32,931 nt of DNA. Origin: Gemmatimonadaceae bacterium (GTDB lineage: Bacteria > Gemmatimonadota > Gemmatimonadetes > Gemmatimonadales > Gemmatimonadaceae). Below, in pieces: positions 5,424 through 7,996 of the stretch (positions are counted from its first letter, which is position 1; every line of letters starts with the position of its first letter). The stretch lies in contig JANPKQ010000182.1 in NCBI GenBank assembly GCA_031426115.1, forward strand, positions 1-32,931, written 5' to 3'. Made by a program: the position numbers and the translations under genes. The notes beneath the pieces were generated by a model. It made no database searches. It had not been told where the DNA came from and saw nothing but the letters and a program-made list of their open reading frames with translations.

Positions 5424-6947
5424 CTAGTAGCGATAGTGCTCCGGCTTGTACGGCCCGTCCATCGGAACACCGATATACGATGCCTGCGACTCGGTGAGCT
5501 TCGTCAGCTTCACGCCGAGCTTGTCGAGGTGCAGTCGCGCGACCTTTTCATCGAGCAGCTTCGGCAGGGTGTACACGCGGCGCTCGTACTTCGAGTTGTT
5601 GGTGTGCAGCTCGATCTGCGCCATCACCTGGTTGGTGAAGCTGGCCGACATCACGAAGCTCGGGTGGCCCGTCGCGCACCCGAGGTTGAGCAGCCGGCCC
5701 TCGGCGAGGATCATCACGCTGTGTCCGTCGGGAAAGACATACTCATCGTACTGCGGCTTGATGTTGATCCGCTTCACGCCCTTCATCTTGTTGAGGCCGG
5801 CCATGTCGATCTCGTTGTCGAAGTGGCCAATGTTGCCGACGATCGCCTTGTCCTTCATCCGCGCCATCTGCTGGGCGGTGATGATCGCCTTGTTGCCCGT
5901 CGTCGTGATGAAGATGTCGGCCGTCTCGAGGACATCCTCGAGCGTCGTCACCTGGTAGCCTTCCATCGCCGCCTGAAGCGCGCAGATCGGGTCGATCTCC
6001 GTGATGACGACGCGCGCGCCCTGGCCGCGCAGCGACTGCGCGCAGCCCTTGCCGACATCGCCGTAGCCGCAGATGACGGCCACCTTGCCGGCGAGCATCA
6101 CGTCCGAGGCGCGGAGGATGCCGTCGGTGAGCGAGTGCCGGCAACCGTAGAGGTTGTCGAACTTGCTCTTCGTGACGGAGTCGTTGACGTTGATCGCCGG
6201 GAAGAGCAGCGTGCCGGCTTCCATCAACTGATAGAGGCGATGCACGCCGGTCGTCGTCTCCTCGGAGACGCCGCGCAAGTCGCGCGCGACACGCGTCCAG
6301 CGGCCGGGATTCTCCTTCTGCTGCGCGCGAATGAGATCGAGGATGATGCCGTATTCCTCGGAATCGTTCTTCTCGTCGAATGCGGGGACCGCGCCCGCCT
6401 TCTCGAACTCGGCGCCCTTGTGCACGAGCAGGGTCGCGTCGCCACCATCATCGAGGAGGAGCGTCGGGCCGGAGCCATCGGACCACATCAGCGCCTGCTC
6501 CGTGCACCACCAGTACTCCTCGAGCGTCTCGCCCTTCCACGCGAACACCGGCACGCCCTGCGGGTTGTCTACCGTGCCATGCTTGCCCACGACGACCGCC
6601 GCGGCCGCATGATCCTGGGTCGAGAAGATGTTGCAGGACACCCAGCGCACGTCGGCGCCGAGCTCGGTGAGCGTCTCGATGAGCACGGCCGTCTGCACGG
6701 TCATGTGCAGCGAGCCCATGATCTTCGCGCCGGCGAGGGGATTCTTCCCCCGGTACTCGTTCCGGAGCGCCATGAGGCCGGGCATCTCGTGCTCGGCGAG
6801 GCGGATCTCCTTCCGGCCGAATTCGGCGAGGGACAGGTCGGCGACCTTGAACGGCGTGCGGCCGGCTTCCTTCGCGGCGGTGAATGACGTGGTGGGTTCA
6901 GCGGTCGTAGCCACAGGTACCTCTGGAGTGGGAGTGCGGGAAACCAA
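5424..6947 (-). CDS. ahcY: S-adenosyl-L-homocysteine hydrolase (adenosylhomocysteinase)
   Basis: Contains the [29 protein letters not shown] motif, the NAD-binding [12 protein letters not shown] motif, and the C-terminal KPEHYRY. The annotated start codon at 6947 is TTG, and the next in-frame candidate is a GTG at V12. There is an 11-nt gap to the upstream regulator gene. Confidence 0.95.
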
Positions 6948-6958
6948 GTTGACAGTGA

Positions 6959-7945
6959 TCAGTGATCAGTGGTCGGTGAGCGAGGCGGGGGCGACATCAT
7001 CGCCGGGCCGGCGGTCGCGCTGGCGACGAAGAGCGTCGGGCCCTTCGCGGCGGAGTCGGCGGGCAGAAGGTGATGGCGAGCAGCGGTGAAACCGGCATCC
7101 TCCAGCCACCCGGTGATCTGCTCCCGGGAGAACCCCTGCCAGAGATGGCCCATTGTGCGTCGGTACTCCTCGCGGTCGTGCGGCGTCATGTCCGCGACGA
7201 GGAGCTTGCCGCCGGGACGCAGCGTCCGTCGCGCCTCCGCCAGCGCCGCGGCGGGATCCTCGACGTAATGCAGGACGAGGAAGAGGATGGCCGCGTCGAG
7301 CGAGCCATCCTCGATCGGAAGCGACTCGAGCCGCCCCCGCTCGAGGCTCACGTTCTCCGCACCGGCGAGCCGCTTTCGCGCCGCGCTCAGCATGGCGGCA
7401 GAATCATCGACCGCAATGACGCGAGCAACGAACGGGGCGAGCGATGCGGTGAGCTGTCCGGTGCCGCAGCCGAGGTCACCGACCGTCCAGCGATCATCGA
7501 GCAGCGCGAGCATGGACAGGAGGTCGGCGCCGTGGCCGAACATCTCCGCTCGCATGCGATCCCACTGGTTCGCGGCCGACGAGAAGAACTCCTGCGACTT
7601 CGACCGCCGCTCGGCGAGCACACTGCGGAGTCGCTGCGCATCCTGCGCCGCCGCCGGCCCCTGCGCGACCTGCTCGCGAACGAGGCTCCACAGGCGTTTT
7701 TCCGCGGGCTCCAACCGTGCGGCCGCCATCGTGTACAAGCGACTCGGTCCGTCAGCGCGGGACACCACCCAGCGTTCGTCGCCGAGGGTCTTGAGGTGCC
7801 GGCTGACCGTGGACTGGGGCATTTGAACGACCGCGCACAGCTCCGAGACCGCCAGCTCGTGGCGTTCCAGCACCAGGAGCATCCGGCACCTGGTGATGTC
7901 GGACAGGGCCGACATTGTATCGAAGATGGAGATCGCGGTGGCCAT
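6959..7945 (-). CDS. ArsR/SmtB-family HTH regulator fused to a SAM-dependent methyltransferase-like domain (SahR-like SAH-responsive regulator candidate)
   Basis: N-terminal ArsR wHTH ([41 protein letters not shown]). C-terminal class-I MTase motif I ([11 protein letters not shown]). It is immediately upstream of, and co-oriented with, ahcY. I place the start at ATG 7945 (MATAISIF), because the longer ORF begins at TTG 7996 and would translate through the operator palindrome. Confidence 0.75.
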
Positions 7946-7946
7946 A

Positions 7947-7996
7947 ATATCCGTATATCCGGATATAAGGATATAGCCTTGGGCGCGGCTGGTCAA
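7947..7996 (-). promoter_or_regulatory. 28-bp near-perfect palindrome ATATCCGTATATCCGGATATAAGGATAT (7947-7974) overlapping a candidate sigma70 promoter (-35 TTGACC at 7996-7991, -10 TATCCT at 7973-7968 on the minus strand)
   Basis: The palindrome matches 26/28 and is centred on CC|GG. It contains nested half-sites ATATCC x2 and GGATAT x2. It abuts the regulator start codon and overlaps the predicted -10 and transcription start. That is the classic autoregulatory ArsR-family operator layout. Confidence 0.6.

Follow-up and report, generated by a model that had tools for sequence, protein, structure and literature searches.

What controls ahcY, the gene for adenosylhomocysteinase, in a Gemmatimonadaceae bacterium, and does the circuit that SahR forms in Proteobacteria exist outside that group? 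The question is raised by a stretch of 32,931 nucleotides (contig JANPKQ010000182.1 of assembly GCA_031426115.1, positions 1 to 32,931; hereafter the window), in which a first-pass annotation had noticed, next to ahcY, a gene for an ArsR winged helix-turn-helix (wHTH) fused to an S-adenosylmethionine (SAM)-methyltransferase-like domain, had likened it to SahR, and had remarked that the lineage, if correctly assigned, would place a SahR-type circuit outside Proteobacteria. SahR is an ArsR-family repressor with a methyltransferase-like effector domain that responds to S-adenosylhomocysteine (SAH) and acts on SAM-cycle genes; it was described in Desulfovibrio alaskensis and D. vulgaris, predicted in alpha-, gamma- and delta-Proteobacteria, and catalogued in 62 genomes from 9 proteobacterial groups (PMC4239095). 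Its core regulon consists of sahR, ahcY, metH, metF and metK, its gene often lies beside ahcY, and its site is a 20-bp palindrome with taxon-specific substitutions, the signature ATC-N10-GAT being common to SahR and SamR (PMC4239095). Within the literature that we searched, the reports naming both SahR and ArsR all concern Proteobacteria. Our analysis supports the assignment of the window regulator as SahR-like, by its architecture, its 20-bp operator (the box) and its linkage to ahcY. Judged from sequence, the cassette of regulator, box and ahcY is commonplace in several non-proteobacterial phyla, which extends a known circuit and does not define a new one.

The two genes of the cassette are arranged as follows.

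6959–7945, minus strand: sahR-like regulator of 328 amino acids (aa), from ATG at 7945 to the stop codon at 6959 (Pfam)
5424–6914, minus strand: ahcY, adenosylhomocysteinase of 496 aa with a GTG start (TIGR00936, PF05221; start by homology)

The predicted fusion was borne out by Pfam, which placed HTH_5 at residues 18–58 (E = 5.7e-11) and Methyltransf_11/25 at residues 157–250 (E = 1e-25) of the regulator. The layout comprises an ArsR wHTH (residues 1 to ~95), a long helical linker, and a class I SAM-methyltransferase-like domain (residues ~140–312), and both domains are visible in an AlphaFold model with a mean pLDDT of 95.4. Alignment of 63 homologues revealed that the SAM-binding motif DLGCGTG and the pocket residues D157, G159, G161, G163 and D180 are nearly invariant; the window protein exceeds its 317-aa relatives by 11 aa. 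When scanned against NCBIfam, the regulator passed only the generic ArsR/SmtB HTH model NF033788, and every enzyme model, those for arsenite methyltransferases included, scored far under its cut-off. The PDB, searched by sequence and by fold, held no SahR-type or homologous two-domain structure; the nearest full-length matches were O-methyltransferases with an N-terminal dimerisation domain, at a high root-mean-square deviation, and were uninformative. The gene that follows immediately on this strand is ahcY, whose product scored 627 bits against TIGR00936 (cut-off 497.6) and matched PF05221 with E = 4e-148.

The regulator family is large, with more than 7,500 word-indexed matches and 586 representatives below E = 1e-30 at 50% clustering. 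An identical regulator protein was also called on a metagenomic Logan contig (L001), and the closest relatives, 77–92% identical, all lie on metagenomic contigs. Two of these (L002, 79%; L004, 88%) are syntenic with the window, carrying sahR and then ahcY with a divergent DUF7790–DUF885 pair, and their promoter and palindrome are nearly identical in sequence to those of the window. Scanning one genome per species with the 63-sequence alignment yielded 80 loci at 56–66% identity, distributed by taxon label as follows.

Gemmatimonadota: 39
Acidobacteriota, mostly Vicinamibacterales: 30
Binatia: 4
Planctomycetales ZRK34 (complete genome): 1
Metagenome-assembled genome (MAG) labelled "Cyanobacteriota": 1
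Eisenbacteria: 1
MAG labelled "Bifidobacteriaceae": 1
Unclassified: 3

Downstream DNA sufficed to judge the neighbour in 76 loci, and in every one of them ahcY is the next gene after the regulator. The window AhcY is itself 83–87% identical to proteins of Gemmatimonadota MAGs and 71–78% identical to those of Acidobacteriota, which makes the placement of the lineage in Gemmatimonadota reasonable. The suggestion that a SahR-type circuit exists outside Proteobacteria is supported, as regulator, box, promoter and ahcY occur together in 76/76 informative non-proteobacterial loci.

We then turn to the region upstream of the regulator, in which the first-pass annotation had described a 26/28 palindrome abutting the regulator start and overlapping a TTGACC-N17-TATCCT promoter. 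The elements in this region are:

7991–7996, minus strand: −35 hexamer TTGACC (promoter scan)
7968–7973, minus strand: −10 hexamer TATCCT (promoter scan)
7947–7966: promoter-proximal 20-bp SahR box, coding strand ATATCCGGATATACGGATAT, position weight matrix (PWM) score 29.8
7955–7974: distal box, shifted by 8 bp and overlapping the proximal one, coding strand ATATCCTTATATCCGGATAT, PWM score 26.2

The promoter is the only sigma-70-like match between 5200 and 8400, and it does overlap the palindrome. The palindrome itself (ATATCCGTATATCCGGATATAAGGATAT, 7947–7974) likewise exists: it is self-complementary at 26 of 28 positions, unique in the window, matched in 0/100 shuffles, and ends 1 nt before the regulator ATG. 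It did not hold as the functional unit, since the unit that is conserved is a 20-mer. The proximal box reads ATCCG-N6-CGGAT, fitting the published SahR signature, and has a counterpart in 78 of the 80 genome loci. A PWM built from these 78 loci replaced a search for ATCCG-N6-CGGAT with up to 2 mismatches, which was too noisy in GC-rich DNA; it revealed half-sites ATCCG and CGGAT that are 95–99% invariant around a centre of six AT-rich, variable positions. Upon scoring 396,694 positions with this PWM, all 52 matches of 14 or more were found at sahR promoters. A gap-free alignment of the upstream regions reads TTGAC, ~17 nt, TA(A/T)CCT, 3 nt, ATCCGG-AT(A/G)n-ACGGAT, with a start codon soon after. 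TTGAC lies 29–31 nt upstream of the box in 56/78 loci, the window showing the modal distance of 30 nt from the start of the −35 hexamer to the box, and TA(A/T)CCT is conserved at the −10 position across phyla.

The outer half of the distal box coincides with the −10 hexamer, its left half being ATCCT. Most relatives carry TAACCT or TATCAT at the distal arm, without outer symmetry, and only about a dozen of the 80 loci have a doubled box of the 28-mer type. The 28-mer arises because the −10 hexamer in the window clade is TATCCT and not TAACCT, which yields a second, imperfect copy 8 bp away. On these alignments, conservation singles out the promoter-proximal 20-mer as the operator; the 28-mer is a composite, the outer arm of which is most simply the −10 hexamer, whether or not a second dimer can also bind there. 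Separately, a 28-bp palindrome that is perfect or nearly so, ATATCCAGATATCCGGATATCTGGATAT, was observed on three GC-rich metagenomic contigs (L017 8079–8106, L023 291–318, L035 3720–3747); it shares the ATAT-N4 periodicity of the window 28-mer and stands directly upstream of an unrelated gene, for a ChrR-type cupin of 177–193 aa. No ArsR-like gene was detected around it in these stretches. Given such symmetric 28-mers before ChrR-type cupin genes, 28-bp sites may be real for some such proteins.

We consider it probable that the cassette is an autoregulated sahR-ahcY operon that keeps SAH low as a negative-feedback homeostat. The protein architecture, the register of promoter, box and ATG, the linkage to ahcY and the conservation across phyla were observed directly; we infer SAH as the effector, and repression as the direction of regulation, by analogy with proteobacterial SahR and from the transcriptome of P. 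mercurii ND132. A dimer of the ArsR-type winged-helix domain would bind the 20-bp palindrome ATATCCGGATATACGGATAT, which extends from 1 nt past the −10 hexamer to 1 nt before the ATG and would cover the predicted transcription start to about +17; from this geometry, the bound regulator would block RNA polymerase. With the −10 hexamer at 7968–7973, the predicted start, at about 7960–7962, falls inside the left half-site and the leader would be ~15–17 nt. In seven Gemmatimonadaceae loci (L136 5032–5051, L146, L153, L158, L172, L175, L182) the regulator ATG lies inside the right half-site (CGG-ATG-A), so that the message would be nearly leaderless and the operator overlaps the start codon. By analogy with Desulfovibrio SahR, the C-terminal methyltransferase-like domain, which keeps a SAM/SAH pocket, would act as the sensor. 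As methylation raises SAH, SAH would bind and take the regulator off the DNA; regulator and AhcY would then be made from one transcript, and repression would return once AhcY has cleared the SAH.

How does the window system compare with SahR and its relatives? It is like SahR in combining an ArsR wHTH with a SAM-methyltransferase-like domain and in carrying a 20-bp ATC-N10-GAT palindrome upstream of its own gene, and like SahR of Desulfovibrio and P. mercurii in adjoining ahcY in the same orientation. It differs in its phyla (Gemmatimonadota, Acidobacteriota, Binatia and Planctomycetota), in its half-site, which is ATCCG in the window clade, of the AT(A/C)AAA type in Alphaproteobacteria and ATCAAG in Leptospira, and in its targets, which so far are only sahR-ahcY as opposed to about 4 genes per proteobacterial regulon. 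Our comparison covered family members of the following organisms.

Sinorhizobium meliloti: ArsR-methyltransferase fusion gene, then metF; box CACATAAACATATCTTTATGTG
Sphingomonas: ArsR-methyltransferase fusion gene, metF, homocysteine S-methyltransferase family gene, metH; box ATATAAAGATATCTTTATAT
Leptospira interrogans chromosome II (L208 4900–10894, NZ_CP020413.2): ArsR-methyltransferase fusion gene, ahcY, ferredoxin gene, metH; box GGATATCAAGATATCTTGATATCC

These boxes and that of the window have a common layout, ATAT-N4-ATAT-N4-ATAT, and differ at four specificity bases. Alignment of the proteins revealed that the differences track the recognition helix:

Window clade: PQSTVSRHL
Alphaproteobacteria: SQPR(I/V)SRH
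Leptospira: GQSRVSRHLK

At the Leptospira locus, a spirochaete pathogen has a SahR-type circuit whose regulator carries no annotation beyond metalloregulator; the box there is a perfect 24-bp palindrome that precedes the annotated start of the regulator by ~20 nt. The record that supplied an S. meliloti locus, CP090106.1 (PLSDB "S. meliloti plasmid pSymB", 3.72 Mb), contains ettA, metF and other housekeeping genes and is probably a mislabelled chromosome.

SamR of Xanthomonadales resembles the window protein in its two-domain architecture and its ATC-N10-GAT palindrome. It differs in being linked to metH1/metH2, in a 24-bp motif, and in controlling a larger regulon of methionine and SAM biosynthesis that leaves out ahcY. 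The SamR context is absent from the window, where the neighbour is ahcY and metH is not found. In Vicinamibacterales and Binatia we observed a second ArsR-methyltransferase paralogue, 29–34% identical, whose stop codon overlaps the metH start (L210 2018–4746, L211, L212 2063–4718), with boxes CAATCCGTATGTCCGGATAT in L212 and AATCTATATATGTAGATT in L210; these metH-linked paralogues are nearer to SamR in context than the window gene is. The simplest reading is that the paralogues divide labour, the window type being dedicated to ahcY. Two further systems share part of the logic. McbR of Corynebacterium is a SAH-released repressor of sulphur amino-acid genes that belongs to the TetR type, with an unrelated fold and a much larger regulon (PMC4239095). 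The SAH riboswitch of Beta- and Gammaproteobacteria also lets SAH induce ahcY, and differs in being an RNA element. No Rfam family, SAH_riboswitch included, matched the window, either at the gathering threshold or with the limit relaxed to E = 1, and riboswitch control of ahcY was rejected on that result.

Several points weigh against the SAH homeostat. The regulator is 29–33% identical to alpha-proteobacterial SahR and 30% identical to the Leptospira protein, and it falls into a separate clade in a neighbour-joining tree; its effector specificity could therefore differ, as suspected for SamR. The transcription start and the co-transcription of the two genes are predictions. No box was found upstream of another SAM-cycle gene (metK, metH or metF) of the lineage in the loci scanned, and metK in L120, the only other methyl-cycle gene among the sahR loci, has neither a box (best PWM score −15) nor a riboswitch. 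The same box and recognition helix also occur with ars-type ArsR proteins, so that another ArsR could bind the site. Were the regulator to sense SAM, as proposed for SamR, or the SAM/SAH ratio, the operon would answer to methyl-donor supply and not to product build-up. The pocket motifs, which are those of any SAM-dependent methyltransferase, would allow this, as would the distance of the window clade from alpha-proteobacterial SahR, which equals that of SamR from SahR (~30%), and the effector of SamR was left undecided by Leyn et al. (2014; PMC4239095). We regard SAM sensing as distinctly unlikely, given that ahcY, which encodes an enzyme acting on SAH, is the one target that is conserved, that Leyn et al. 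(2014; PMC4239095) argue for SAH responsiveness where the regulator is linked to ahcY, and that in P. mercurii ND132 sahR and ahcY were co-induced by adenosine and not by methionine. An arsenic- or metal-responsive ArsR fused to an arsenite-type methyltransferase, for which the link to ahcY would be secondary, appears extremely improbable. Its appeal lies in the metalloregulator HTH model NF033788, which the regulator passed (60.5 bits; cut-off 55), in cross-reactivity to SAH and arsenic reported for some ArsR proteins of ND132, and in three loci (L007 1854–2232, L026 4714–5555, L061 274–663) where a small ars-type ArsR stands beside a low-molecular-weight protein tyrosine phosphatase-type arsenate reductase (ArsC) with an identical helix and box. 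These ArsR proteins bind As(III) through ELCVCDL, at which position the window protein has ELAVSEL, so that AVS stands in place of CVC, and the 63 homologues share no conserved cysteine. Models of the arsenite methyltransferase ArsM also scored poorly on the regulator (58.7 bits for PRK11873 against a cut-off of 263, and 30–49 for others against 400–575), the window contains no ars or metal-efflux genes, ahcY is the neighbour in 76/76 loci, and SahR of ND132 does not respond to arsenic. The AVS replacement, the low ArsM scores and the lack of nearby ars genes weigh against the metal-sensing reading.

The remaining alternative places the activity of the palindrome elsewhere, either in an RNA hairpin of the 5′ untranslated region that hides the start codon or in the binding of some other protein, with the fusion acting mainly as an enzyme. 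The palindrome does abut the ATG, which in several Gemmatimonadaceae loci even lies inside the right half-site, and the methyltransferase motifs are intact. With the −10 hexamer at 7968–7973, however, the transcript would include no more than the 3′ half of the palindrome. The invariant half-sites and variable spacer, without compensatory changes, point to a protein-binding site and not to an RNA helix, and the box accompanies the regulator gene in 78/80 loci; we therefore hold this alternative to be very unlikely. A bolder version of the SAH-homeostasis reading joins several of these strands: a self-contained cassette that has spread to, or been kept intact in, at least five phyla and has hardly altered its register, with a DNA-binding module and operator taken directly from an arsenic-type ArsR and CVC lost, the 28-mer of the window clade recruiting two dimers for a sharper switch, and shared boxes allowing arsenic or redox ArsR proteins (at ars, ChrR-cupin and gamma-glutamylcysteine ligase loci) to cross-talk with the methyl cycle. 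Taken as a whole, this combination is doubtful.

The arsenic loci also bear on the origin of the cassette. Their box ATATCCGCATATnnGGATAT, of the form ATCCG-N6-(C/A)GGAT, is of the same 20-bp type as that of the window, their ArsR proteins contain CVC, and their helices read PQSTVSRH(L/M). Classical ArsR, as represented by these loci, thus resembles the window regulator in its winged-helix fold, its PQSTVSRHL helix, its ATCCG-N6-CGGAT box and its role as an autorepressor heading an operon, and differs in its size (~110–130 aa), in lacking a methyltransferase domain, in sensing As(III) through CVC and in controlling arsenic resistance. This comparison suggests that the DNA-binding module and operator of SahR derive from ArsR; because the box is common to ars-type ArsR, the presence of a box is not enough to tell which regulator is involved. 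The database label of such fusions, "metalloregulator ArsR/SmtB family transcription factor", steers annotators to metals.

We also looked beyond ahcY for further targets, the first-pass annotation having proposed a search for the palindrome at other methyl-cycle genes. The refuting condition set out there is answered only in half: members of the family are regularly associated with SAM-cycle genes, but in the loci of this lineage that we scanned no box stands upstream of another methyl-cycle gene. Beyond ahcY, the window contains neither a methyl-cycle gene nor a second box. A scan for second boxes, which covered about 0.9 Mb around more than 80 sahR loci, found none save one copy in L205 (TAATCCGGATAAAAGGATGG, 4426–5043), ~930 bp upstream of the real box and beside an IS1595-like transposase fragment. 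We rejected this copy as a second target; it is probably a rearranged promoter remnant. A metagenome scan with ATATCCNNATATNNGGATAT returned at least 120 matches, mostly chance matches in AT-rich DNA or other elements. Among the matches listed, the only SAM-cycle genes were those of sahR-ahcY loci and one metH (L084), which has an ATCCG-type box upstream. The MetH of L084 has its closest matches among proteins of Myxococcota and "Deltaproteobacteria", and the locus was rejected as a member of a Gemmatimonadota regulon on account of its Myxococcota-like contig. Its ATCCG-type box suggests, without proving it, that the window clade is close to delta-type SahR. Boxes were also noticed in other settings. 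One (ATATCCGGATATCCGGATAT, L079 1278–1297), on a contig of 66% GC, precedes a gene for a glutamate-cysteine ligase of the GCS2 family by ~120 nt. Another, box-like, sequence (GATATCCGTATATATGGATATACGGATATCC) occurs three or four times per locus on contigs of ~50% GC (L009 2776–6109, L104 2983–5325, L100 6563–7323), and these recurrences look like a dispersed repeat and not like operators.

The regulator-box-ahcY cassette is standard in Gemmatimonadota and Vicinamibacteria, which are abundant, poorly cultured soil phyla, and it is present in Binatia and Planctomycetota, the Leptospira version being more distant. Its recognition would give a functional name to thousands of genes, a ready operator model for regulon prediction, and a compact candidate pair of SAH-responsive promoter and repressor for biosensors; understanding of the SahR circuit itself is unchanged.

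Finally, we examined the junction of the two genes, which contains the following elements.

6915–6958, minus strand: sahR-ahcY spacer, 44 nt
6920–6924, minus strand: ahcY ribosome-binding site AGAGG, 5 nt before the GTG at 6914 (read from sequence)
6953–6979: period-7 tandem CAGTGAT, 3.9 copies, spanning the sahR stop codon (Tandem Repeats Finder, TRF)

The first-pass annotation had placed the regulator 11 nt upstream of a co-oriented ahcY that starts at a TTG. Adjacency and orientation were correct, and the true gap is 44 nt; the shorter figure resulted from taking the longest open reading frame, from TTG at 6947, as ahcY. Homology with L002 and L004, in which the called AhcY proteins are 496 aa long and start at the equivalent GTG or TTG, together with AGAGG, places the start at GTG 6914, and GAGG is conserved 5–8 nt upstream of the ahcY start in both relatives. 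Unusual or coupled initiation, which had been raised for this junction, was rejected, as a GTG start with a Shine-Dalgarno sequence conserved in relatives and a 44-nt spacer leave no reason to invoke it. The spacer contains no promoter-like, terminator-like or box-like element and no Rfam match, and we infer from this that sahR and ahcY are co-transcribed. The CAGTGAT tandem pointed out at the junction was recovered by TRF. It is not special to the junction: L002 and L004 lack it, TRF found at least six arrays of period 7 in the window, this one among them, and its presence is probably incidental.

Heptamer-periodic intergenic arrays were observed in the window at 387–431, 514–543, 5366–5403, 6953–6979, 7997–8130, 15762–15790, 30285–30320 and 30490–30508, with the units GCTTTCA, CAACTAA, ACTGnnn/CAGTnnn, CTGACAA and GGTACCC. 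Relatives carry other 7-mers just upstream of their sahR promoters, namely AATCTGC in L163, CATCGGC in L179, GCCATTA in L187, and, in L139 and L150, GAGGACT arrays followed by inverted CCTCAGT arrays. The arrays recall the short tandemly repeated repetitive (STRR) heptanucleotide repeats of cyanobacteria; we know of no description of such arrays in Gemmatimonadota or Acidobacteriota. Elsewhere in the window, a full-length M2 peptidase of the angiotensin-converting-enzyme type is encoded at 538–2433 on the minus strand (PF01401, 768 bits), and a 113-bp unit is tandemly duplicated just downstream of the 3′ end of its gene (150–361; 1.9 copies, 95% identical). The M2-peptidase gene lies beside a MacB/FtsX gene, an arrangement also present in the relative L004.

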